NCBI GenBank assembly: GCA_976551045.1
Contig: CDPCPM010000354.1
Location: forward strand, 6,572,001-6,636,000
Length of the DNA stretch: 64,000 nt
Direction of reading: 5' to 3'
DNA from: Glaucostegus cemiculus
Lineage: Eukaryota
In this document: piece by piece, positions 4,708 to 61,232 of the stretch
How the letters are laid out: every line of letters starts with the position of its first letter
Numbering within the stretch: position 1 is the first letter of the stretch
Notes under the pieces: model-generated
Seen by the model: the letters and a program-made list of their open reading frames with translations, nothing else
Databases searched by the model: none
What the model was told of the DNA's origin: nothing
Program-made: the position numbers and the translations under genes

Positions 4708-5605
4708 CAGAGTCACACAGCACAGAAACAGGCCTTTTGCCCCAACTTGTCCATGTCAGCTGTGTCGCCCAGTGAGCTAGTTCCATCTGCCACGTTTGAT
4801 CCATAGCCCTCGAAACCTCTCCTATCCATGTACTTATCTGGATGGCTTTTAATGTTGCTAATGTGCCCGCCTCAGCCACTATTTCTGGCAGCTCATTCCA
4901 AATACGCACCATCCTTTGTGTCCTTTGTGTGAAGAAGCTGCCCCTGATGTCCCTTTTAAATCTCTCACCTCTGACCTTAAATCTACGCCCTCTTGTTTTC
5001 AGCTCCCCCTCCCTGGGAAAAAGACTATGCGTTTTCACCCTGTCCATTCCCCTCATGATCTTATACATCTCTATCAGGTCACCCCTCAATCTCCGACATT
5101 CCAAAGAATAAAGTCCTAGACTACACAACCTCTCCTTGTAATTCAGCTCCCCCCAAGTCCAGGCAACATCCTGGTAAATCTTTTCTGCACTCTTTCTAGT
5201 TTAGCGTAATGCTATTACAGCACGAGCGACCCAGGTTCAATTCTGGATGCTGTCTGTTAGGAGTTTGTACCTTCTCCCCGTGTCTGTGTGGGTTTCCTCC
5301 GGGTGCTCTGGTTTCCTCCCACATTCCAAAGACATACGAGTGAGGAAGTTGTGGGCATGCTATGTTGACACTGGAAGCATGGCAACACTTGCGGGCTGCC
5401 CCCAGAACACTCCACACAAAAGATTCATTTCACTGTGTGTTTCTATGTATATGTGTCTAATAAAGATATCTTTTCTATAACAGGGTGACCAAAACTGTAC
5501 ACAGTACTCCAAGTGCAGCCTCACCAATGCCTTATATAACTGCAACGTAAGTCCCAACTCCTACACTCAGTGCACAGAATGATGAAGGCCGGTGCGCCAA
5601 ACACT
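4708..5605 (-). mobile_element. CR1 (HER1-like) LINE 3' fragment, interrupted by a SINE at 5197-5471
   Basis: ORFs LYKALVRLHLEYCVQFWSPCYRKD (5360-5557) and LGLYSLECRRLRGDLIEMYKIMRG...FFTQR..VRIWNELP (4685-5128) are the CR1 ORF2 C-terminus. Confidence 0.92.
5197..5471 (+). mobile_element. V-SINE, second family (Rex1/Babar-like tail), 5'-truncated
   Basis: B-box GGTTCAATTC, V-domain, unique segment ggaagttgtgggcatgctatgttg, tail catttcactgtgtgtttctatgtatatgtgtctaataaagatatctt. Confidence 0.85.
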
Positions 5606-15511: not shown

Positions 15512-16425
15512 ATCAGAATCAGAATCAGGTTTATTATCACTGACATATGCTGTGAAATTTGTTGTTTTGCGGCAGCAGTACAGTGCAAAGACATAAAAAT
15601 TGCTATAGGTTGCAAAAATAACTAAATAGTGGAAAAGAGGGATAACAAGGTAGTGTTCATGGGTTCATGGACCGTTCAGAAATCTGATGGCGGAGGGGAA
15701 GAAGCTGTTCCTGAAACATTGAGTGTGGGTCTTCAGGCCCCTGTACCTCATCCCTGATAGTAGTAACATAAAGAGGGCATGTCCCGGGTGGTGAGGGTCC
15801 TCAAAGATGGATGCTGCCTTCTTGAGGCATCATCTCTTGAAGATGTCCTCGATGGTGGGGAGGGTGGTACCTGTGATGGAGCTGGCTGAGTCTACAACCC
15901 TCTGCAGCCTCTTGCGATCCTGCACATTGGTGCCTCCATACCAGGCGGTGATGAAACCAGTCACAGCGCTTTCCACGGTACACCTGTAGAAATTTGCAAG
16001 AGTCTTTGGTGACATAGCAAATCTCCTCAAATTCCTAAGGAAGTAGAGCAGCTGGCGTGCCTTCTTCGTGATCGCATCAATGTGTTGGGCCCAGGATAGA
16101 TCCTCTGAGATGTTGACACCCAGGAACTTGAAGCTGCTCACCCTTTCCGCCGCTGACCCCTCAGTGAGGACTGGTGTGTGTTCCCCTGACTTCCCCTTCC
16201 TGAAGTCCACAGTCAATTCCTTGGTCTGACGTTGAGTGCGAAGTTGTTGTTGTGACACCACTCACCCAGCCGATCTCTCTCACTCCTGTACACCTCCTCA
16301 TCGCCATCTGAGATTCTGCCAACAACAGTGGTGTCATCGGTGAATTTATAGGTGGTGTTTGAGATGTTCCTAACCACACAGTCATTAGTGTAGAAAGTAG
16401 AGCAGTGGGCTGAGTGTGCATCCTG
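15512..16425 (-). mobile_element. Rex1/Babar LINE, RT C-terminal half plus 3'UTR (frameshifted)
   Basis: STFYTNDC...YKFTDDTTVVGRISDGDEEVYRSE (FADD-like RT motif), TKELTVDFRK...FKFLGVNISEDLSWAQHIDAITKKARQLLYFLRNLRRF...FYRCTVES; (TCTGAT)n tail. Confidence 0.95.
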
Positions 16426-21719: not shown

Positions 21720-21938
21720 GAGATACTGAGATACAGTGAAAAGCTTTTGTTTGTCATCCAGACAGAGCATTCCATACATAAGTACATCGAGGTGGTCCAA
21801 AAGGAAAACAGAACGTGGAATGTAGTGTTCCAGTTACAGAGAAAGTGCAGTGCAGGTAGGCAAATAAAGTGCAAGTGCTGTGATGCGGAGTTCATTCTTC
21901 AGTGTATGAGAGGGTCATTCAAGAGTCTGGTAACAGTG
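21720..21938 (-). mobile_element. Rex1/Babar-type 3'UTR fragment
   Basis: gatacagtgaaaagcttttgttt...cagttacagagaaagtgcagtgcagg matches 36745-37185 and 43930-44460; it follows a Penelope-terminus piece at about 21535-21715. Confidence 0.7.
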
Positions 21939-22044
21939 TGAATAAATATATAAAAAATTACCAGGGGATAAAAAGCAAATGACACTACGAATTTTGGAAA
22001 TATGAAAAACAAAGACTGGAATTTCTGATGATCGTAAATTGCTG

Positions 22045-22320
22045 AAAACCAAACATTTAGTCCAGAAAGCTCCAACCTGCCAGGTTGGAAGATAAGGTTT
22101 TGTTCTTTGAGTTTGAGTTGGGCTTCATTGGAATGGTGCAAAGAGTGGAGGTGCAGCGAAGGGAATGGGTTGAGAATTAAAGTTACAGCCCCTGCTGGAA
22201 GCTCAGAGTCACCCCTATGGACCGTACAGAGATGCTTTGCACAGCGATCACCCAGTTTGGTTTCTCCAAGGAAGAGGAGACCACATCATAAGCACTGGGT
22301 GCAGTACACTTAATGGAAGG
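22045..22320 (-). mobile_element. Penelope GIY-YIG endonuclease fragment (degenerate)
   Basis: HHSNEAQLKLKEQNLIFQPGRLELSGLNVWFS is homologous to KCKLEEQHLIFHLGTLQPNGMDIEFS at 60490-60816. Confidence 0.75.
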
Positions 22321-23196
22321 AGAAATAACTTGATCACTGTTTCCCGAGACATGTTGCTTGTGCTGATGGATTTCCTGTTAGTGATGCCACCCCACCCAGA
22401 TCCTGATTTGGAACCCTCCCCAGCCCACACCAGGGTCTCCACAGCACTGTGACACTACGCACATTTAAAACCATGCAAATTACAGTGATTTAAATAATAA
22501 TTTACATTACTAGAGTTGGAAATTACAGAAAGTAAAAAGTACTACTGGCAGTCTGCAAGCAGGGGATGAAATAACTGGAACTTAGAAGCTCTGTTCTGAT
22601 GCTTTCCAAGGCATGTTGCAATTAGTGGTCTCTAAGAAGAGTCGCATTACATTTCAAAAAGGCTTATACTTTCACCTGCCACTTGTCACGGTCCAGAAAG
22701 GAATAAGCCATCATACTCTTTCAAAGCAGAGTCTGTGTAATCTTGTTTGCTGACGTGCATGGTAGCTGTGTGCTGACATTCCAGCAGCAGACAATTTTGT
22801 TGCTGTTTGATGCTTAAGCTGCTGAACTGTCAACAGCACCAATCAAAAATAAAAATGAGCTATTGGTGCTGGTCACCAACGCGACAGCTTCATCTGGAGA
22901 CAAGTGATTCTTTCTTTAAAATCTTCCAATTATGTTGCAGGAGTTGATAACACACCATCAATATTAAAATACCTCGAACAACAAAAAATGACTGATTGTC
23001 TAGGAATAGAACAATCCTGCACAGTTATTGAGTTAATTGGAATTCAAGTATCAGCGATTCTCTTTGCTTCAACCAGTAGATGGTGCAGTTGGTAAAGGAT
23101 AAAATGTCTTTTCCAGACTGAGGCCAGACTGCAATTAGAGACCACCAGAGAACTTACAAATGTATTACATATTTTGGATTATATCGACGTGTACCT

Positions 23197-27749: not shown

Positions 27750-29135
27750 TATGCATCACTTGGCATTCCCCAACATTAAACTGCACTTACTCTGGTTGGC
27801 TCCTTGATGTGTTGATCTAGAAAACTATCTCCAGGAATTCCTACTCCACAGTACTGTTACTAATTTGGTTAGCACATTCTCTGTGTTGATTAAAGTGAGC
27901 CATGACTACAGCTGTACCCTTACTGCACTCTGCTTTCCTGCTTAACGCTGTCCCAACTTCACCACTACTGTTGAAGGGTCAGTACGCAACCCCCATTAAT
28001 GTTTTATCCCCTTTTGTACTTCTCAGCTCTGTCCTTACAAATTTCACAACATCAGAGCTAATATCCTTCCTGCCCATTGTTTAATCTCATTAACCACAAC
28101 AGGATCCCACCTCCTTTTCCTTCTTCGCTGTCCTTCCTCAATATTGAGTACATCTGGATGACCCATTCCCTCCAGGCATGGCCCTGTAGTCCCTGTTATA
28201 TCGTCCACACTTACACCGGTTTACACAATTAATTCATCCACCTTGTTGTGAATGCCGAATACCTCACACATTAAAACTCTCATCCATTAGTCTTGTCTTT
28301 TAATATTCTTATCCTTTAAAATAAGATAGATATCTTTATTAGTCACACACAGTGAAATCCATCTTTGGCGTAGAGTGTTCTGGGGGCAGCCCGCAAGCGT
28401 CACCACACTTCTGGTGCCAACATAGCATGCCCACATCTTCCTAACTTGTACATCTTTGGAATGTAGGAGGAAACCAGAGCACCTGGAGGAAACCCACGCA
28501 GAAATAGGGGGAACGTACAAACTCCTTACAGACAGCAGCCAGAATTGAACCCAGGTCGCTGGCGCTGTAGTAGCATTACACTAACCGCTACACTACTGTG
28601 CCACATTAGATTGTGTCACAGCCATGCTCCATTTCTCCTCCTTGCACTTTTGTTTCTCCCCCTCCTGTTTCTTTTACCTGCTTCCTCTTTCAGGTTCCCA
28701 TCCCCCTGCTGATTTAGTTTAAACCCTCTCCGACTCACTAACACTCCCTCTGGGACATTGCTCCCTGCCCTGCCCAAGTGCAGCCCAACCAGCTTGTACT
28801 GGTCCCACCTCCCCAGAGCCAGTTCCAATATCTCAGGGATTTGATCCTTCCTCTTGCGACATACCTGACTTATCCTTCTATCCGGACTTGCATGTGGTAC
28901 CGGGCATATCCCTATCTTTGCTGACCCATTTTTAAATTAGTTCCTTGCAGGACCTTATGTCCTTTCTCACCTATATCATTGTTCACCCCCCCTCCAGAAT
29001 GCTCTGCAGTCATCATTGACCCTAGCACCAAAGAGGTAACACACTGTCCTAGAGACCCATTTGTGTGGAAGAAACGTCTGCTGCTCCACTTACAATTGGA
29101 TCCCTTATCACTGTAACCCTGCTGTGCAGCAGAGC
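27750..29135 (-). mobile_element. Degenerate CR1 5' region (ORF1 SGNH-esterase-like domain and ORF2 endonuclease remnants), interrupted by a SINE
   Basis: RWDQYKLVGLHLGRAGSNV resembles the DGLHL block and GVNNDIGEKGHKVL the GTND block of SGNH esterases found in CR1 ORF1. Confidence 0.7.
28318..28604 (-). mobile_element. V-SINE, second family, near full length
   Basis: Reverse complement: gtggcacagtagtgtagcggttagtgtaatgctactacagcgccagcgacctgggttcaattctggc...tail gtgactaataaagatatctatcttatt. Confidence 0.9.
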
Positions 29136-29679
29136 CACCTGTGTCTGCTGTGATGCTCAAAAACCTGGAGGAACCCAGTGGGTCAGGCAGCATCTATGGA
29201 GGGACACGGACAGTCAGCAAGATTCCAGCATCTGCTGTCCCTTGTGTCTCCATCCATCACTGCTCCTGCCTCCCCCTGATTATCCACCTCCCCCAACAAC
29301 ATCTATAGCTGTATATCTGTCAGAGAGGGGTTGGACACAGGGGATTGCTCTACTACCTCCCTGCACCACTGTGAATTGCTGTCCCTCATTACTTTCCTAC
29401 TGTGCATTCTCTCCCTCTAGATGTCCTATCCATCTGACTCTACCTCCAGGTATGTAATGCAGTCAACCAGTAGCAGCGGTTGGATACAGCCTCTGCACAC
29501 ACAGTTATGGTTAGTTATGTATCCCTGGCTATGTACATGGTTATGTATCCCTGCATACACAGTGTCCTTGATTTTCAATGTGCTGTAGAAAGAACATGCC
29601 ACAGGTCTGAGCTCTCCTGCCATGGCATATCCTTTAATTACTTTAAATTAAATGAAATTAAAGCTGACTAGTTGCACAT

Positions 29680-31944: not shown

Positions 31945-32930
31945 GGGACACAGCAGTCTGCAGATGCTGGAAAGCTGGACCAACACACAAAATGCTGGAG
32001 GAACTCTGTGGGTCAGGCAGCATTTGTGGAGGGAAATGGACAGTTGATGTTCCAGGCTGAGGTCCTTCATCAGGACTGGAAAGGAAGAGGGCCAGAATAG
32101 GGGGAGGGGGAGGAGCAGGAGCTGGTGGGTGATGACTGAATCCAGGTGAGGGGGGCAAGGTAGGTGGGGGGGGAGGGGTGGAGTGAGAATGATGTGTGGA
32201 GCTGGGGGGTGATAGGTGGAAGAGGCAAAAGGCCGAAGAAGATGGAATCTGACACAAGAGGACAGTGGACCATGGAGTGCAGGAAAGGAGGTGGGGAACC
32301 AGAGGGAGAAGGTGTGGGTGATGGGCAGGCCATGGGGTTGGGGGCGGGGGAGGGGAAAGAGAAGGGATAAAGGGGCCAGAGGGATGAGGGAAAACAGAGG
32401 GGAGTGGTTAACCAGAAGTTAGAGAAATCGATGTTGATGCCATCAAGTTGGAGATTGCCGAGACAGAATATGAGGTGTTGTTCCTCTAATCTGTGCCTAG
32501 CCTCAACTTGGCACTAGAGGAGGTCATGGACAGACATGTCGGTGTGGGAATGGGAAGTGGAATTGAAGTGGCTGGCACTGGGAGATCCTGGCTGTTACAG
32601 CGTACGGAGTGAAGGTGCTTGACAAAGTGGCTTCCCACTTTGCGCCGGGTCTCACCGATGTAAAGGAGGTGTGGGGGCAGGTTGCAGGGGTAAGTACCTG
32701 GAGGATGAATCGGTGGGGAGGAACGAGTGGACAAGGGAGTCATGGAGAGAGCGATCCCTGTGGGAGGGGAGGGAAAGGGAAGACGTGCCTGGTGGTGGGA
32801 TCCTTTGGAGGTGGCGGAAGTAGCAGAGAATGACGTAATAGGTGAGGACAAGGGGAACCCTCTCCCTGTTATGTCAGGGTGGGGTGGGGTGAGGGCAGAC
32901 ATACGGGAAATGGAGGAGATGGGGGTGAGA
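31945..32930 (-). mobile_element. Penelope-like element 3' part: GIY-YIG remnant, pyrimidine-rich UTR and terminal repeat with hammerhead-like motif
   Basis: ORF 32486-32950 LLYIGETRRKVGSHFVKHLHSVRCNSQDLPV; minus strand cagtc-CTGATGA-aggacctcagcct-GGAAC-atc-aactg at about 32041-32078. Confidence 0.88.
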
Positions 32931-35585: not shown

Positions 35586-36442
35586 ATCAGAATCACTCTC
35601 GGGTTTATTATCACTGATGTATGTCATGAAATTTGTGGCTTTGTGGCAGCAGTACAGTGCAAGACATAAAGACAGAAAAATCACTATAAGTTACAAAAAA
35701 TATAGTCCAAAAGAGGAATAACAAGGTAGTTTTCACGTGGTCATGGACCATTCAGAAATCTGATGGCAGAGGGGAAGAAGCTGTTCCTGAATCATTGAGT
35801 GTGGGTCTTCAGGCTCCTGTACCTCCTCCCCGATGGTAGTAATGTGAAGGGGGCATGTCCCAGGTGGTGAGGGTCCTCAATGATAGATGCCGCCTGCTTG
35901 AGGCACCACCTCTTGAAGATGTCCCTAATGGTAGGGAGGGCTGTGCCCGTGATGGAGCTGGTTGAGTCTACAACCCTCTGTAGCCTCTTTTGATCTGTGC
36001 ATTGGAGCCTCCGTACCAGGCGGTGATGCAACCAGTCAGAATACTCTCCACTGTACATGTGTGGAAATTTGCAAGAGTCTTTGGTGACAGACCAAATCTC
36101 CTCAAACTTGTAATGAAGTGGAACTGCTGACATGCCTTCTTTGTGATTGCATCAATGTGTTGGGCCCATGGTAGATCCTCTGAGATGTTGATGCCCAGGG
36201 ACTTGAAGCTGCTCACCCTTTCCACCGCTGACCCCTCAGTGAGGACTGGTGTGTGTTCTCCTGACCTCCCCTTCCTGAAGTCCACACTCAGTTCCTTGGC
36301 GTTGCTGATGCTGAGTGTGAGGTTGTTGTTGTGACACCACTCACCCAGCCGGTCTCTCTCACTCCTGCACACCTCCTCATCGCCATCTGAGACTCTGCCA
36401 ATGACAGTGGTGTCATTGGTGAATTTATAGATGGCATTTGAG
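35586..36442 (-). mobile_element. Rex1/Babar LINE RT C-terminal half plus 3'UTR
   Basis: ORFs 35968-36372 and 35792-36133 closely match the copy at 15512-16425. Confidence 0.95.
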
Positions 36443-36454
36443 TGTTTCTATTTT

Positions 36455-37185: not shown

Positions 37186-37861
37186 ATCTTCTGAAATGTG
37201 ATGAGGTTAGAGGGGGCGGAAACCTTCCTCACATTTCAGAAGTGCCCAGATTAACATTAACATTTACCATGGTGTAACTCACACGAGGCTACAGGCGTGG
37301 GATAAGGGACAAAGTGTTAATTTGGTGACCATTGACAGGATGGGATCAATGGCTTTCTTCTACACCCTACGTTTCTATCATTCATTAAACATGTTCTCCT
37401 GTGAGGAACAAAACAAGCTGAGCTGGACAATTTGACAATTCCTTTCCTCCCACAGATGCTGCCTGATGCACTGAGTTCCTCCACCGGATTGTTGTTCCAG
37501 ATTCCAACATCTGCAGGCTCTTGAGTGTCCAAGCTGAGCTGGACGTTTATCTCCGTCCCTTTGCTATAGATGAGCCAATGTTTTGGAAGCTCATTCCCAG
37601 CATCAGGAGAATGCCCCTCTCACCCGCGTTTGGCCTTTGCAGGGAATCAAGGGTAAGGTAAATAAACAGCCAAATCCTGCAAAGGATGGTTTAAAAACAG
37701 CTCTTGGCAGTTAACAAATTCAATGAGTGATTTTCATTCTTCACCACACTCTAAGGCAGAGCCTTCCAAAACTCACATTTAAAATCTAGTCTGGAGTGTA
37801 TCCTCTCCCAAATCTGTCTCTCCAACCCCCCTCAGAACCGGTCCATGTGAATGTTTGACCT

Positions 37862-38081
37862 GAGAGATTCTGCAGATGCTGCAATCTGGAGCAACTCACA
37901 CAAAATGCTGGAGGAACTCAGCAGGTCAGGCAGTATCTAAAGAGGGAAATAAACAGTCGACGTTTCAGGTCGAGACCCTTCATCAGGACCTGTCTCGACC
38001 CAAAAAGTCAACTGTTTATTTCCATCCATGGATTCGGCCTGACCCGCTGAGTTCCTCCAGCAATTTGTGTGCGTTGCTCCA
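37862..38081. mobile_element. Fold-back non-autonomous Penelope-terminus element
   Basis: Arms 37887-37977 and 37992-38081 are imperfect reverse complements around a 14-nt loop; homologous to the terminus of the element at 31945-32080. Confidence 0.85.
37953..37993 (-). ncRNA. Minimal type I hammerhead ribozyme motif (Penelope-associated)
   Basis: Minus strand ACAG-GTC CTGATGA AGG-GTCTCGA-CCT GAAAC GTC^GACTGT: intact CUGAUGA and GAAA core, 3-bp stem II, palindromic ACGT stem III, GUC triplet, stem I GTC/GAC extended by ACA/TGT. Confidence 0.75.
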
Positions 38082-38577
38082 TACAAGTTTTCGCTGACTT
38101 TGATCATGCATTGGTGAGCGCATGATGTGTGCCTTGCATAACCAAGTCTGCAGATAAAGAAAGGCAACTCAAATTCACGTTCCCACTTGGATCAATATTT
38201 TTCTGACACAAGTTCTTTGATTATTCAAATCCACTCTCTTTACTTGAAATCCGTGCTTCAATTAGATTAGTAGGAAGGCACTACTCATATCGATATCAGC
38301 ATTAACAAGCTTCAGCTCCCAAGTATTCAATTCTGATCATATAACAAGATGCGTAAGAAACACACTCTTAATCCAGTGAGGGTTCAGTGTATTATTCAAA
38401 ATGAATAGTCAGGGATTCATTGTGACTTCTTTGTGTTGTCTCATTGAATAGAACAGGGCAGAGAAAGTGATTGGGTACCTTCGGGGCTACATCAAGTAAA
38501 CAAGATACTTTACAATCAAAGAGCAGGATGGGAAATCAGGGAAATGGACAACAGGCCGTGCAATATTGGAGAAGCGG

Positions 38578-39696: not shown

Positions 39697-40492
39697 CCTG
39701 TTCAGCTAAAAATAAAAAAAGCTGCGGTTGCTGGAAATCTATAACATTAACTCTCTTTTTCTTCCCATTGATGACCTGCAAAGTGTTTCCAAAACCTGCG
39801 CTTTTGTTTATGTATTTTCATATGGGAAGAAGACAGCATTTTATTCTGACGGTTAACACTTCCAAAGGCTGACCCAAGTCCGCTGGAACCATTGTGTTGC
39901 CTGTAATCCCTGTTCACAGTTACACCACAGTGTTCCAAAGAGAGAGTTAAATCCCATTTACATCCTATTTGTATTTGCATGAATCAGTTCTTCAACATTT
40001 CCCCCAATTCACAGCTTGTTCTTTAGAACTTCATGACAACATCTTTGATCCCTCACAGCATGCTGGGATATTATGTTCAGTCAGTTTATTGTGTGTGGCC
40101 CCTCCTGCATGATTCTGTTTTTACCACCTCTACAAGTCATGAACTTCAGATCCGAACCATTTTCCATCTTGTCACACCACTTTTCCACCTTTTGCTCAAA
40201 ATCTGAAATCTGCCTTCCCATTCCTTAAACCATTGACTGGTGTAAAAGACTTCCTTCTCTTTACCCTGTCTAAACCCAACGTAACCCTGTCCATCCCACA
40301 AATCTCCTCTCAACCTTCTTGCTCCAAGTAAAACATTCTGTGGCTTCTCTAGTGTAAGTCTTGCTGAAATCCTTTGTCTCTGTGACTATTGTGGTCACTG
40401 TGAACATGTAAGAAGTAGAAGGATATTTGGGCAGGACGAGATAGAGAGGGAGATTCAGGGTGGTTACCATTTCAGAAATAGTCGATAATTCT

Positions 40493-40797
40493 GGGCAGAC
40501 ACGGTAGGGTAGCGGTAAGTGTAACGCTATTACACTACTAGTGATCCAGGTTCAATTCCGGCCACTGGCTGTAAGGAGTTTGTACGTTCTCCCTGTGACT
40601 ACGTGGGTTTCCTCCGGATGCTCCGGTTTCCTCCCACATTCCAAAGATGTACAGGTTAGGAAGTTGTGAGCATGCTATGTTGGCGCCGGAAGTGTGGCAA
40701 CACTTGCGGACTGCCTCCAGAACACTCTACTCAAAAGATGCATTTCACTGTGTGTTTCAATAATCATGTGACTAATAAAGAAATCTTATCTCATCTT
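40493..40797 (+). mobile_element. V-SINE, second family, full length
   Basis: gggcagacacggtagggtagcggtaagtgtaacgctattac...GGTTCAATTCC...V-domain...catttcactgtgtgtttc...gtgactaataaagaaatcttatctcatctt. Confidence 0.9.
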
Positions 40798-41737: not shown

Positions 41738-42570
41738 TTCATAGAGTTCATAGGGTTATACAGCACGGAAACAGGCCCTTTGGCCCGACTGGTCCATGCC
41801 AACCAAGATGCCCATCCAAGATAGTCCCATCTGCCAGCTTTTAGCCCATAACCTTCCAAACCCTTCAAATCCATGGAACTGTCCAACTGTCTTTTAAAAG
41901 TTGTTGTTGTACCTGCCTCAACCACTTCCTCTGGCAGCTCATTCCACATACACACCACCCTTTGTGGAAAAAAACATTGCCCCTCAAGTTCCTAGTACAT
42001 CCCTCCCCTTTCACCTTAAACCTCTGTCCACTAGTTCTTGATTCCCCAACCCTGGGAAAAAGGCTGAGTGCATTCACCCTGTCTATGCCTCTCACGATTT
42101 TATACACCTCTAGAAGATCATCTCTCAGTCTCCTAAGCTCCAAGGAATAAAGTCCTAGCCTGTCTAACCTCTCCCTATAACTCAGTCCCTCAAGTCCTGG
42201 CAACATCCTCGTAAATCTTTTCTGCACTGATATAGTTCCTATAGCAGGGCAACCAAAGCTTCAAGTACAGCCTCACCAGTGTCCTGTATAACCGCACCAT
42301 GATCTCCCAACTTTTATAATCAATGCCCTGACTTGTGAAGGCCACTGTGCCAAAAACCTAGAGAAACAAAGGACTGCAGATGCTGGAATCTAGATGAAAA
42401 ACACAATGATGCTGGAGGAACTCAGCAGGCCAGGCAGCATCCGTGGAGAAAAACAGGTGGTTAATATTTTGGGTCAGGTGCCTTCTTTAGGACTGGCCAA
42501 AAGCCTTCTTCACCACCCTGTCTACCTGTGACTCCACTTTCAATGAACCATGTCCTCGTACTCCAGGGTT
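41738..42570 (-). mobile_element. CR1 (HER1-like) LINE 3' part, interrupted by a Penelope terminus at about 42360-42495
   Basis: QKRFTRMLPGLEGLSYRERLDRLGLYSLELRRLRDDLLEVYKIVRG and WNELPEEVVEAGTTTTFKRQLD. Confidence 0.93.
42360..42495 (-). mobile_element. Penelope terminal fragment
   Basis: gaaacaaaggactgcagatgctggaatctagatgaaaa...ccttctttaggact closely matches 59535-59665. Confidence 0.85.
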
Positions 42571-47574: not shown

Positions 47575-47815
47575 TTCTCATCTAGTTCTCGCACTTCTGC
47601 TCTCACCCCTTCTCTTCTCCAGGACAGAGCAAGGACAGAGCTCCCCTTGTCTTCACGATTTCTGCCAACTCCAACAAGATCCCACCACCATACACGAGCT
47701 CCCCTTCCCCTCAAAGGGCCAGTCTTCTTTGTGACTCCTTCGCCCGCTCTCCATCCCCAGACAACCTCTACAGCACCTTCTCAGGAGATGCAACACCTGA
47801 AACTGTATGCACCTC
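47575..47815 (+). mobile_element. Degenerate Penelope internal fragment within old CR1 sequence (about 47295-48145)
   Basis: gcacttctgctctcacccc...tctgccaactccaacaagatcccaccacca is similar to 60160-60320. Confidence 0.6.
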
Positions 47816-48292: not shown

Positions 48293-49445
48293 ATCATAGA
48301 AATATAGAATCGTACAGGACAGGAAAGGGACCTGTTGGTCCTTTGCATTCAAACCGACTGTGATGTAATATTGGAATATGGCTTTCCAAAATGCGTGACC
48401 TCACACTTGCCTGGAATAAATTCCAACAGCCACCTCTCCGCTCAACTTTCCAACTGATCAACATCCCGTTCCATCCTTAGACAACCGTCTTCACTACCTA
48501 CAGCTCCACCAGTTTCTGTGTCATCTGCAAACTTACAAATCAGGCCACCTACATCCTCATTCAGGTAATTTCTATATATTACAAACAACAAAGGGGTCAG
48601 CACTGATCCCTGCAGTACATCACTTGTTACTGATTTCCGGTCAGAAAAATACCAACCCACCAGTACCCTCTGTCTCCTCTAACCAAGCTAATTTTGGATC
48701 TAGTTTGCCAACATGCCTTGGATCCCTTGTGCTTTAATCTTCTAGACCAGCCTACCATGCAGGTCCTTGTCAAAAGCCTTACTAAAGTCCATGTAAACCA
48801 TGAGTACTGCTCTGCCTTTGTCAATTTTCTTAGTTACCTCCTCAAAAACTCAGTCAGATTTGTGCGAAATGAACCCCTGCACCGAACCATGCTGGCTCAT
48901 ACATTTCCAAGTGAGCATAAATCCTGCCCCTCAGAATCTTCTCCAACAACTTCCCTACCACTGGTGTAAGGCTCACTGATCTATAGTTTCTGGACTTGTC
49001 CCTTCCACCCTTTTGGAACAAGGGGACAACATTAGCCATTTTCCAGTCTTCTGATATCTCACCCATGACTAATGAAGATGCAAAATTTCCCATTAGAGCC
49101 TCAGCAATCTCCTCACTTGCTTCCCTTTGCATCCTGGGATAGAACCCATTAGGCCCAAAGGATTTATCCACCCTACGGTGCTCCAATATTTCGAACATTT
49201 CCTCCTTCCTGATCTCCAGAATATCAACATACCCCTCCCTGCTTTTTTTTTGTTCAGTGTGTCTGTGTGTCTCTGCTGTTTGTTATTTAATGAGACGAGC
49301 TCCAGAGGAGGACGGTATCTCGCTCCTATGCATACCATGTATGTATATGGTTGTGACAATAAAACTGATTCTGATTCTGATTCTGATTCCTTAATTCTCC
49401 AACCTTCATCCTTCTCTCTGGTGAATACTGATGAGAATTCTGTTC
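48293..49445 (-). mobile_element. CR1 ORF2 RT fragment plus a short CR1 tail; Rex1-type tail inserted at about 49255-49390
   Basis: GPNGFYPRM...EDWKMANVVPLFQKGGRDKSRNYRSVSLTPVVGKLLEKILR and VTSDVLQGSVLTPLLFVIY...ICKFADDT. Confidence 0.93.
49255..49390 (+). mobile_element. Rex1/Babar 3' tail with (TCTGAT)n, same family as 3589-4100
   Basis: gacgagctccagaggaggacggtatctcgctcctatgcatac...gttgtgacaataaaactgattctgattctgattctgattc. Confidence 0.9.
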
Positions 49446-51954: not shown

Positions 51955-52272
51955 AAAGTCCAAGTCAAAGTTGAGTTTGTTATCATATGCACAATTAAGT
52001 GTATGTACAGGTGCAATGAAAAACTTACCTGCAGCAGCATCACAGGCACAGAGCATCAGATAAGCAGCATTCACAAGAAAGACATAAATTAAACATAAAG
52101 TATGCACAATTAGAACAAAAAAACTCAAAGTCCACGTTAATACAAACTGATCGAAGTGGTCATAATGTTGCTAAACAGTAATAATTCAGGTTGTGCAGGT
52201 GGGTTCAAGAACAGAGTGGTTGAAGGTAAGTAACTGTTCCTGAACCTGGTGGAGTAGGACTTCAAAAATACT
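51955..52272 (-). mobile_element. Rex1-type LINE 3' end, (TTTGAC)n lineage
   Basis: aagtccaagtcaaagttgagtttgttatcatatgcac...gttgaaggtaagtaactgttcctgaacctggtgg (reverse encodes an RFRNSYLPST-like ORF end). Confidence 0.8.
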
Positions 52273-52479
52273 TCAGGCTCTGGAAATCTGCAACTAAAAC
52301 AGAAAATGCAGAAACAATCGTTAGGTCAGTGACCATCGATGGAAAGGGAAACAGAGTTAACACATTAACATTTAACAGAGTTAATTTTTTCTCTTTTGTT
52401 TTAGATTTCCAGAAGCTGCCGTTTTTAGATTTTAGATAAAGTATACCCCTGGCATTTATAAGAAGCCAGAATATCAATT

Positions 52480-55397: not shown

Positions 55398-55469
55398 TAC
55401 AAGCAAAAGTCAGAAGGTTAGATCACACCATAGATGTCACTACTTCATTAATTCATCATGGTTATTTGT

Positions 55470-55660
55470 AATAAAAACATAAAATTGTTGGAAATACTCA
55501 GCAAGTCAGGCACCATCTATGGAGAGAGAAACAGAATTAACACTTAAGGTCAATGACTATTCATCAGTGACCTGAAACGTCAACTCTATTTTTCTTTTCT
55601 TTGCTATTTGACCTGCTGAAGATTTCCAGAACTTTCTGTTTTTATTCCAGCATCTGCAAT
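55470..55660. mobile_element. Older fold-back Penelope-terminus element
   Basis: ttggaaatactcagcaagtcagg...aggtca...ttcatcag | tgacctGAAACGTCaactct...tgacctgctgaagatttccag; same architecture as 37862-38081. Confidence 0.7.
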
Positions 55661-55847
55661 GTTTTACCTTTCACTTTTAATTCAGTGTTTATTTTCAATA
55701 CTTTTCTACTGGCTATATTTTACCTAGAGAAGAATGTTATCTCATGAAAGAATCTCCAGGCAGAGATTAAATTATTGTGAATAAACACTGACTGTGGGAC
55801 AAATTTGATGCACGGAGGAATTTCTTAATCAAGAAATGGTGTAATCA

Positions 55848-59532: not shown

Positions 59533-61232
59533 GGGAAACAAAGGACTGCAGATGCTGGGATCTAGATGAGAAGCATGGTGATGCGGGAGGAACTCAGCAG
59601 GCCAGGCAGCATCCGTGGAGAAAAGCAGGCGGTCAACGGTTCAGGTCAGGACCCTTCTTCAGGAATGAAGATGGGAAAAGGGGAAGCCCAATATATCAGG
59701 TGGAAAAGCAGAGCAGTGATAAGTGGACAAAAGAGGGGAGGTGGGGTGGGCACAGGGTGGTGATAGGTAGATGCAGGTAAGAGATAGTGATAGGCAGGTG
59801 TGGGGGAGGGGAGAGCAGATCCACCAGGGGATGGGTCAAAGGTAAGGAGGAAAAAATGGGGGTATAATAAAGAGAGACAGGCTAGGAAAGGGAAGGAAAG
59901 AAGAGGTGTGGTTGGGGGAGGGGTGTGGGGGGAATTGTGGGGATTACCTTAAGCGAGAGAATTCAGTGTCCATGCCGTTAGGCTGCAAGGTTCCAAGATG
60001 GAAAATGAGGAGCTGTTCCTCCAGTTTGCGCTTGGAATTCTGGCATTGGAGGAGTCCGAGGACTGAGAGTTCTGTGACAGTGTGGGAGGGGGAGTTGGTG
60101 ACTGGCAACAGGGAGATGCAGGTTCTGTGATGGAGTCGGAGGGACATCGCTGCCATTTCTAGCACCTCTGCTCTCACTCCCGGCTCTCCTAGACCCAACA
60201 GGGATAGGGTCCCCCTTATCCTCACGTCATCCCACCGGCCTACGGATCCAACACATCATTCTCCACCACTTCCGCCATCTCCAACAGGACCCCACTATCA
60301 AGCATGTCTTCCCCTCCCTTTCTGTCCTTTGCATGGACCGCTCTCTCTGCAACTCCCTAGTTCACACCTCACTGCCCCACCCCCCACACATCCTGCTCCC
60401 ACCCCGGGAACATTTCCACTGCCCCCGCCATAGGTGCAGCACCTTCCCCCTACACCACCTCCATCCAGGGACTCAAACAGTCCTTTCAGGTGAGACAGAG
60501 GTTCACCTGCACCTCCCTTAATATCATTTACTGCATTCAGTGCTCCAAGTGTGGCCTCCTCTACACTGGTGAGACCAAACGCAGACTAGGTGACCATTTG
60601 GCAGAACACCAGCACTCTGTCCGTAACCGTGACCTGCATCTCCCCGTTGCCAGTCACTTCAACTCCCCCTCACACACTATCACTGATACGTCAGTCCTCG
60701 GCCTCATCCGCTGCCGGGAGAATTCCAAGTGCAAACTGGAGGAACAGCACCTCATTTTCCATCTTGGGACCTTGCAGCCTAATGGCATGGACATTGAATT
60801 CTCCCACTTTAAGTAATCCCCACACCCTCCCTCCGCCCCCACATCCCTCCCCCAACCATGCCTCTTCTTTTCTTCCCTTTCCTTACCTCTCTTTTTTCTA
60901 CCCCCCCCTTTTCTCCTTACCTGTGACCCATCCCCCGGTGGATCTGCTCTCCCCTCCTCCCTCACACCCACCTATCACTATCTCTTACCTGCATCTACCT
61001 ATCACCTCCCTGTGCCCATTCCACCTCCCCTCTTTTGTCCACCTATCACTGCTCTGCTTTTCCCTCCTATATACCGGGCTTCCCCTTTTCCTATCTTCAG
61101 TCCTGAAGAAGGGCCCAGACCCGAACCATTGACCGCCTGGTTTTCTCCACGGATGCTGCCTGGCCTGCTGAGTTCCTCCAGCATCATCATGTTTCTCATC
61201 TGGATTCCAGTATCTGCAGTTGTTTGTTCCCC
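59533..61232 (+). mobile_element. Penelope-like element with inverted pseudo-LTR structure
   Basis: 59533-60136 is the reverse complement of about 60614-61232; the middle contains the linker and GIY-YIG coding remnant. Confidence 0.92.
60490..60816 (+). pseudogene. Penelope GIY-YIG endonuclease domain (open frame, 5'-truncated element)
   Basis: RQRFTCTSLNIIYCIQCSKCGLLYTGETKRRLGDHLAEH...PVASHFNSPSH...KLEEQHLIFHLGTLQPNGMDIEF: IIY..YxG motif, CxxC and terminal GxN-like motif of Penelope endonucleases. Confidence 0.9.

Follow-up and report, generated by a model that had tools for sequence, protein, structure and literature searches.

A minimal hammerhead motif in a head-to-head, truncated Penelope-like insertion of Glaucostegus cemiculus, predicted to be locked by its own inverted arm

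Minimal hammerhead motifs of Penelope-like elements (PLEs) form a class described in 2014 by Cervera and De la Pena; the genomes of fish, coelacanth and frog are reported to hold thousands of comparable motifs (PMC4209133). They combine a CUGANGA box followed by an extra base, a GAAA box and palindromic positions 15.2-16.2 with a short helix I and no helix III, and they occur mostly as single truncated copies, some of them in opposite-strand pairs. The same account reports no activity for them as monomers and weak activity as dimers (PMC4209133), and the dimer requirement invoked in the earlier note on the locus studied here does stand as the published model (PMC4209133, PMC6765202).

Three other systems are close enough to deserve comparison. 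In PAc, a Poseidon element of Anolis carolinensis, the hammerhead lies about 110-120 nt before the element 3' end and two 3' ends bound an optional tail; this element is active and expressed, and its ribozyme cleaves with its protein, which it requires, although RNA ends at the cut site were not seen in vivo in the work reported (Frangieh et al. 2024, PMC11167929). Non-LTR retrozymes are non-coding, PLE-derived and equipped with type I hammerheads, and they are described as two or more consecutive head-to-tail tandem units, each with its own complete ribozyme (Cervera and De la Pena 2020, PMC7229834; preprint 10.64898/2026.07.22.740005); PLE-linked type I elements are reported from one chondrichthyan (Li et al., preprint 10.64898/2026.07.22.740005). 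Finally, canonical type I hammerheads, as modelled in Rfam (Schistosoma, newt and amniote types), share core boxes and topology with the motif described below.

The motif and its described relatives

We analysed a 64-kb stretch of Glaucostegus cemiculus DNA (hereafter the window), where the earlier note had pointed to a minimal type I hammerhead with every conserved nucleotide on the minus strand. All 11 invariant positions are indeed there (Table 1), and the core boxes together with a descriptor match confirm the minimal type I architecture. Stem III is, as had been stated, only the palindrome ACGT (ACGU in the RNA), and reading C17 at 37959 places the predicted scissile bond at 37959|37958, as claimed. 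The interval 37953..37993 held for the motif itself but not for its 5' end, where an inversion junction occupies 37990-37993 and helix I carries an extra G. Helix I (5' strand GUC, 37989-37987, minus strand) comprises 3-4 bp, extending to 6 bp if a bulged G is allowed, helix II has 4 bp, and helix III is absent. A single unpaired A (37979) directly follows CUGAUGA, as also in 12/12 other copies of the repeat to which the motif belongs, and GAAA is followed by CG, UC and then GAC at 37958-37956.

Table 1 Coordinates of the hammerhead motif, its insertion and the informative family copies in the window.
Feature	Positions	Strand	Details
Minimal type I hammerhead motif of Penelope pseudo-LTR	37953..37992	-	Sequence and descriptor match
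Core box C3-A9 (CUGAUGA)	37980..37986	-	
Helix II GGGU/ACCU, 4-nt loop CUCG	37967..37978	-	
GAAA box, palindrome and C17	37958..37966	-	GAAA 37966-37963, ACGU 37963-37960, C17 37959
Arm 1, 5'-truncated PLE end	37857..37992	-	From 4-6 nt 5' of C3 to roughly +124..+129
Arm 2, inverted second copy	37992..38081	+	Starts within helix II (+11 from C3), ends +99
Older sister insertion, short head-to-head form	55467..55666	.	Junction inside hammerhead (-1, +11), arms 71% alike
Longer head-to-head insertion, same family	59533..61232	.	Hammerhead C3 59662 minus, 61103 plus, both A15.1>C
Frameshifted PLE ORF remnant	60140..60840	+	RT-region end, Cys-rich linker 60420, CCHH-spaced GIY-YIG-type endonuclease
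Second long 5'-truncated PLE copy	31946..32914	-	Endonuclease remnant 32870-32391, pyrimidine-rich spacer, hammerhead, tail

The motif and Infernal searches that had been proposed gave a divided answer. A minimal type I hammerhead descriptor applied to both strands of the 64 kb returned this motif as its single match; in 200 dinucleotide shuffles its loose form gave a mean of 0.105 matches (at least one in 19/200) and its strict form none (0/200). Rfam recovered no hammerhead, with 0 matches at gathering threshold in the whole window and four weak matches at E up to 10 in 37700-38200, none of them a hammerhead. Two of these lie over part of the insertion that contains the motif, UnaL2 at E 7.8 and MIR2275 at E 2.8, and could be taken to suggest a LINE 3' tail or a miRNA-like hairpin, but each falls about 40 bits under its gathering threshold. 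Such an origin, or a motif arisen by chance, is scarcely credible, being refuted by the strict descriptor result in shuffled sequence and by the direct link of the family to a GIY-YIG open reading frame (see below).

Judged by five of six listed features, the motif belongs, or may belong, to the PLE minimal hammerheads: it has the CUGANGA and GAAA boxes with an NUH triplet, the palindromic 15.2-16.2 and no helix III. The sixth feature is self-cleavage as a dimer or with protein, for which folding predictions in the native context are unfavourable (see below). Its helix II lies at the short end of the published lengths (PMC4209133), and the row of an Acropora digitifera Neptune element in Fig. 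S3 of that paper agrees with it in having a helix II of 4 bp, a loop of 4 nt and CGUC. Cartilaginous fish are absent from the 56 motifs of that figure as we read it. The motif differs from canonical type I hammerheads in its short helix I, in the absence of helix III and loop III, and in having no Rfam match at E 10. It also departs from the published opposite-strand pairs, in that its partner abuts it and lacks a core, and would therefore lock it rather than supply a second ribozyme.

One position deserves a comment. The closing pair of helix II is G10.1-U11.1, whereas the inverted arm of the same insertion has C at the counterpart of 37967, and the U would have arisen by CpG deamination. G10.1-C11.1 is described as highly conserved, yet several rows of Fig. 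S3 show G-U (PMC4209133), so that this pair alone should not disable the motif; our literature search found no quantification of its activity. The hammerhead motif is thus genuine, but it is an ordinary leftover of a known class, of which it adds a further member, and the locus itself matters little. No description of the repeat family or of this locus was found among the papers listed by full-text searches, although the supplements of the preprint 10.64898/2026.07.22.740005 may list the family.

The repeat family and its parent element

The motif heads a repeat of ~130 nt, which gave 21 matches in the window with the focal copy as query; in a family profile search, 25/32 matches in the window had E up to 0.01. 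The copies with C3 at 32073 and 61103 run 5' through a pyrimidine-rich spacer into frameshifted ORF remnants that match ray and shark RT/GIY-YIG proteins (E 2e-60 for 60140-60840, plus strand; 4e-26 for 32870-32391, minus strand). The focal copy is truncated before the ORF, and the terminal-repeat location is shown for the family through these two copies. The copy at 32073 carries the lesion A13>G. The A15.1>C change shared by the copies at 59662 and 61103 may already have been present in their template; they belong to a 1.7-kb PLE insertion whose arms are about 90% alike.

In the open frame 60361-60813, the IIY and LYTG motifs flank a CxxC, with two His further on (CCHH-type layout). Its Pfam GIY-YIG match (E 0.009) is below the cut-off. 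The frame has nine homologues, the four named ones coming from Mobula, Leucoraja and Chiloscyllium with 51-63% identity (62% for P0003). The homologues P0008 and P0010 carry both RVT_1 and GIY-YIG domains; in the window copies, the truncation falls after the RT core. The CX2-5CxxC linker, described as absent from Penelope and Poseidon (PMC8557442), is complete in P0003 and P0008, and the window copy retains 2/3 of its Cys. Because of the ORF link, the CCHH endonuclease and this linker, we interpret the repeat as the terminal pseudo-LTR of a PLE with a C-terminal endonuclease. By its linker motif rather than by an RT tree, this PLE is probably Neptune, although Nematis too has a linker. The Penelope-like origin proposed at the outset is thus substantiated by longer copies lying directly 3' of broken GIY-YIG/CCHH frames. 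Like PAc, the focal copy has its hammerhead about 110-120 nt before the element 3' end and two 3' ends around an optional tail; it differs from PAc in being Neptune-like by the linker motif, truncated and ~7% diverged.

Could the repeat instead be an independent short non-autonomous family, SINE-like or a non-LTR retrozyme monomer, rather than truncated ends of an autonomous PLE? Many copies start within a few bases of helix I, the copy at 42360-42495 is framed by an 11-bp target-site duplication, and retrozymes derive from pseudo-LTRs and are reported in a chondrichthyan (preprint 10.64898/2026.07.22.740005). However, the 5' ends range from -973 to +99 and two insertions reach the ORF, none of the seven tandem arrays in the window involves the family (0/7), and a search for a tRNA head gave 0 genes. 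We therefore regard this explanation as unlikely and retain that of truncated PLE ends. A tandem retrozyme was rejected outright: the focal insertion holds one complete hammerhead in head-to-head arrangement and no tandem units.

Upstream of the C3 at 32073 (minus strand), 21608 (plus) and 61103 (plus), a tract of 77-90% pyrimidines ends in CAG/TAG at helix I. By its sequence, it looks like a 3' splice site (a prediction), and the AG is absent in 3/6 of the long copies inspected. An intron end coinciding with helix I is reported for Penelope of D. virilis (PMC4209133).

The surroundings agree with the earlier description of the locus as vertebrate non-coding DNA: CpG o/e in the window is 0.25 and no host-gene domain appeared in 300 ORFs. 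Pfam searches of 129 ORFs of at least 84 aa gave three matches, one GIY-YIG and two ALKBH8_N within a repeat, the latter a domain that we take to be LINE-associated; 171 ORFs of at least 56 aa (from 325 non-repeat ORFs of 45-83 aa) gave 0 matches. More diverged PLE ORF fragments with no adjoining hammerhead match occur at 21902-22359 (minus strand) and 47575-47749 (plus). An RT fragment of another retroelement (48382-48759, minus; 31% identity to P0010) and a PF09004-matching repeat in two copies (15833-16261 and 35971-36447, both minus) are probably LINE remnants. Self-similar repeats make up 24% of the window, with abundant SINE-like families of ~250-300 nt (e.g., 5203-5476, 28345-28600, 40500-40791).

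Insertion anatomy, decay of the core and predicted locking

The focal motif forms the centre of a head-to-head insertion of ~225 bp (37857-38081). Arm 2 is identical to arm 1 at 77/90 positions, lacks CUGAUGA and carries the core changes G12>A and C15.2>A, whereas the last ~25-30 nt of arm 1 (37857-37886, with ~5 nt of uncertainty at the left edge) constitute a tail missing from arm 2. An inverted 5'-truncated neighbour and a one-sided tail of 30-40 bp are described as hallmarks of PLE insertion (PMC8557442). Both are present here, with a tail of ~25-30 nt, and inverted arms also occur at 55467-55666 and 59533-61232. The focal tail ends 117-122 nt past helix II; in PAc, the tail lies between two sites at which reverse transcription starts, 111-118 nt beyond where helix II begins (PMC11167929). 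We infer that the insertion arose from two priming events of reverse transcription by the PLE protein, near +99 and +125 relative to C3, both cDNAs halting within the ribozyme before being joined head to head.

No target-site duplication was found at the focal insertion. Some duplication was returned for 7/15 insertions; in three it measures 11-15 bp, in the other four 7-8 bp, a length that could be chance. The longer ones (15, 11 and 15 bp) frame family copies at 37414-37544, 42349-42506 and 2663-2807. The 42.4-kb copy begins exactly at the helix I 5' strand, and the 37.4-kb copy is coreless and lies on the opposite strand, 330 bp from the focal insertion.

To compare decay across copies, 16/21 family matches were aligned (the five omitted begin at or past the cut site), and three truncated inside the motif were dropped, leaving 13 core-spanning copies. 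The focal copy is the only one with all 11 invariant positions (1/13), in line with its earlier description as the best-preserved core in the window, and the other 12 carry 1-4 lesions. At the observed decay rate, however, 1.7 intact cores are expected among 13. In the 12 non-focal copies, the core is conserved at 110/132 positions (83%) and the conserved tail block at 292/357 (82%; p=0.42); against the whole tail the core is somewhat better kept (83% vs 74%, p=0.08), in a test of low power, the 12 copies coming from several subfamilies. Since one intact core is observed for 1.7 expected and the core is conserved like the tail block, the intact focal core calls for no selection. The excess conservation of core nucleotides across family copies, whose lack the earlier note had named as telling against its claim, was not seen in this window. 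One intact core among many copies is simply what chance predicts, a caution for similar cases.

The focal copy itself tells the same story. Its arms differ at 13/90 sites, i.e., about 7% each if they are taken as coeval, and at this divergence the probability of an untouched core is 0.44. Its private changes are distributed similarly over ribozyme (1/37) and tail (5/91; p=0.67). The three core CpGs retain CG in 2, 1 and 0 of the 12 other copies, CG being taken as ancestral and U17 being possible in some subfamilies. The focal copy keeps 2/3, and we read its G at 37958 as that of a retained ancestral CpG rather than as a derived change. Helices I and II showed no covariation across copies, 66% of helix cells pairing, equal to shuffles (222/500). 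The focal copy has probably decayed neutrally since its insertion.

The motif is moreover predicted to be sequestered. In a minus-strand RNA, arm 2 would be transcribed first and is complementary to 37976-37887; a single extended hairpin is the predicted fold of the region (-148.8 kcal/mol, z=-19.7). Imposing helices I and II around an unpaired core is predicted to cost 3.3 kcal/mol in 37990-37950 and 6.2 in arm 1 alone, and the cost rises to 13.4 with 18 nt of arm 2 and to 28.1 with the whole of it. In simulated growing transcripts, the competing hairpin has a probability of 0.94-1.0 from 37967 on, with helices I and II at 0.000. Nearest-neighbour energies omit core tertiary contacts, Mg2+ and protein help, so that the values for monomer and dimer should be read loosely; the robust part of these modelled estimates is the penalty of 22 kcal/mol from arm 2. 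In any minus-strand read-through RNA, arm 2 would thus pair with arm 1 into a ~100-bp hairpin and remove helices I and II, and the focal copy should for this reason not cleave. According to the model, an RNA whose 5' end lies no more than ~10 nt from 37992 would escape the lock, but nothing points to one. The plus-strand copy, arm 2, is coreless, and the descriptor, run over both strands of the window, returned no second intact core that might serve as a dimer partner in cis. The view of this copy as a promising candidate for an active self-cleaving RNA is therefore not supported, given the predicted sequestration and the lack of a second intact core. More generally, folding predictions suggest that PLE inversion junctions can structurally switch off a ribozyme.

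A functional self-cleaving RNA that acts at this locus in vivo and is maintained by selection, arm 2 perhaps serving as an antisense switch, is very improbable. The locus does have the sole intact core among 13 and retains 2/3 CpGs where other copies mostly lost theirs, but one intact core is the neutral expectation, arm 2 is predicted to occlude the motif fully, the 64 kb hold no second intact core, no host exon was found among the ORFs searched, and RNA ends at the cut site were not reported even for the expressed PAc (PMC11167929). We consider it instead very probable that the motif is the pseudo-LTR hammerhead of a Neptune-like cartilaginous-fish PLE, carried by a doubly 5'-truncated, head-to-head copy that has decayed neutrally and is locked; the focal copy is decaying and probably silent. 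The motif, the family, the GIY-YIG ORF link, the two-arm anatomy and the decay statistics are shown by the sequence analysis. In the parent element, two motifs would pair through ACGU to form a helix III and be cut after GUC, slowly and perhaps aided by the PLE protein.

Compatible with this explanation, and concerning the excised motif only, is the idea of a latent ribozyme: dead in its context, the 41-48-nt motif might cleave slowly once excised, either in an intermolecular dimer or after a helix III has been engineered into it. All the invariant core positions are present (11/11), G10.1-U11.1 has precedents among published PLE motifs, one of them being row S. mansoni (1), from the family tested in vitro, and helices I and II have a pairing probability of ~0.23 in 37990-37950. 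On the other hand, the best predicted fold of the 48-mer is another hairpin (z=-0.59), the best dimer (-29.3 kcal/mol) pairs through GUCGAC, a competing palindrome that spans the cut site, compared with -10.3 kcal/mol for a double hammerhead modelled explicitly but not optimised, published cleavage rates are low, and 1/9 Xenopus dimers is reported to have cleaved. We hold this to be plausible, though a little short of an even chance.

The palindromes 37887-38081 and 55467-55666 would yield 90-100-bp double-stranded RNA if transcribed from either strand, a possible substrate for editing or small-RNA pathways.

Truncation ends within the ribozyme

We collected 17 5' ends of window copies whose position an inversion junction or target-site duplication defines, a small sample read by eye in which paired arms are non-independent and very short copies under-detected. 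Ten of the 17 fall within the 38 nt from -5 to +32 of C3, with 0 in the 50 nt upstream and three in the 50 nt downstream of this interval (p 3e-4 against a uniform distribution, 0.015 against the downstream part alone). Five are no more than 6 nt away from the cut site, but only one (29216) coincides with it. Run-off from cleaved RNA was rejected as a general cause of truncation, the focal, 55.5-kb and 42.4-kb copies spanning the uncut site. Stalling on an uncut ribozyme fits better, because most of the short two-piece insertions (see below) include bases 5' of the scissile bond.

These ends hint, tentatively and with less than even prospects by some way, that reverse transcription of this PLE family halts preferentially in the hammerhead, owing to folded RNA, bound protein or occasionally a cleaved end. 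Preferential halting would explain why both focal 5' junctions lie in the motif, and also how genomes fill with short ribozyme-plus-tail copies. Among the papers listed by a literature search, we found no account of truncation ends concentrated in the ribozyme. If it were true genome-wide, this footprint would offer a sequence-only handle on the in vivo role of the PLE hammerhead, described as still unclear (PMC8557442).

The short two-piece insertions lie at 29158-29253, 39713-39800, 52264-52423 and 2678-2792. In each, a segment starting at +22..+37 from C3 is joined to an inverted tail piece, a geometry that resembles L1 twin priming.
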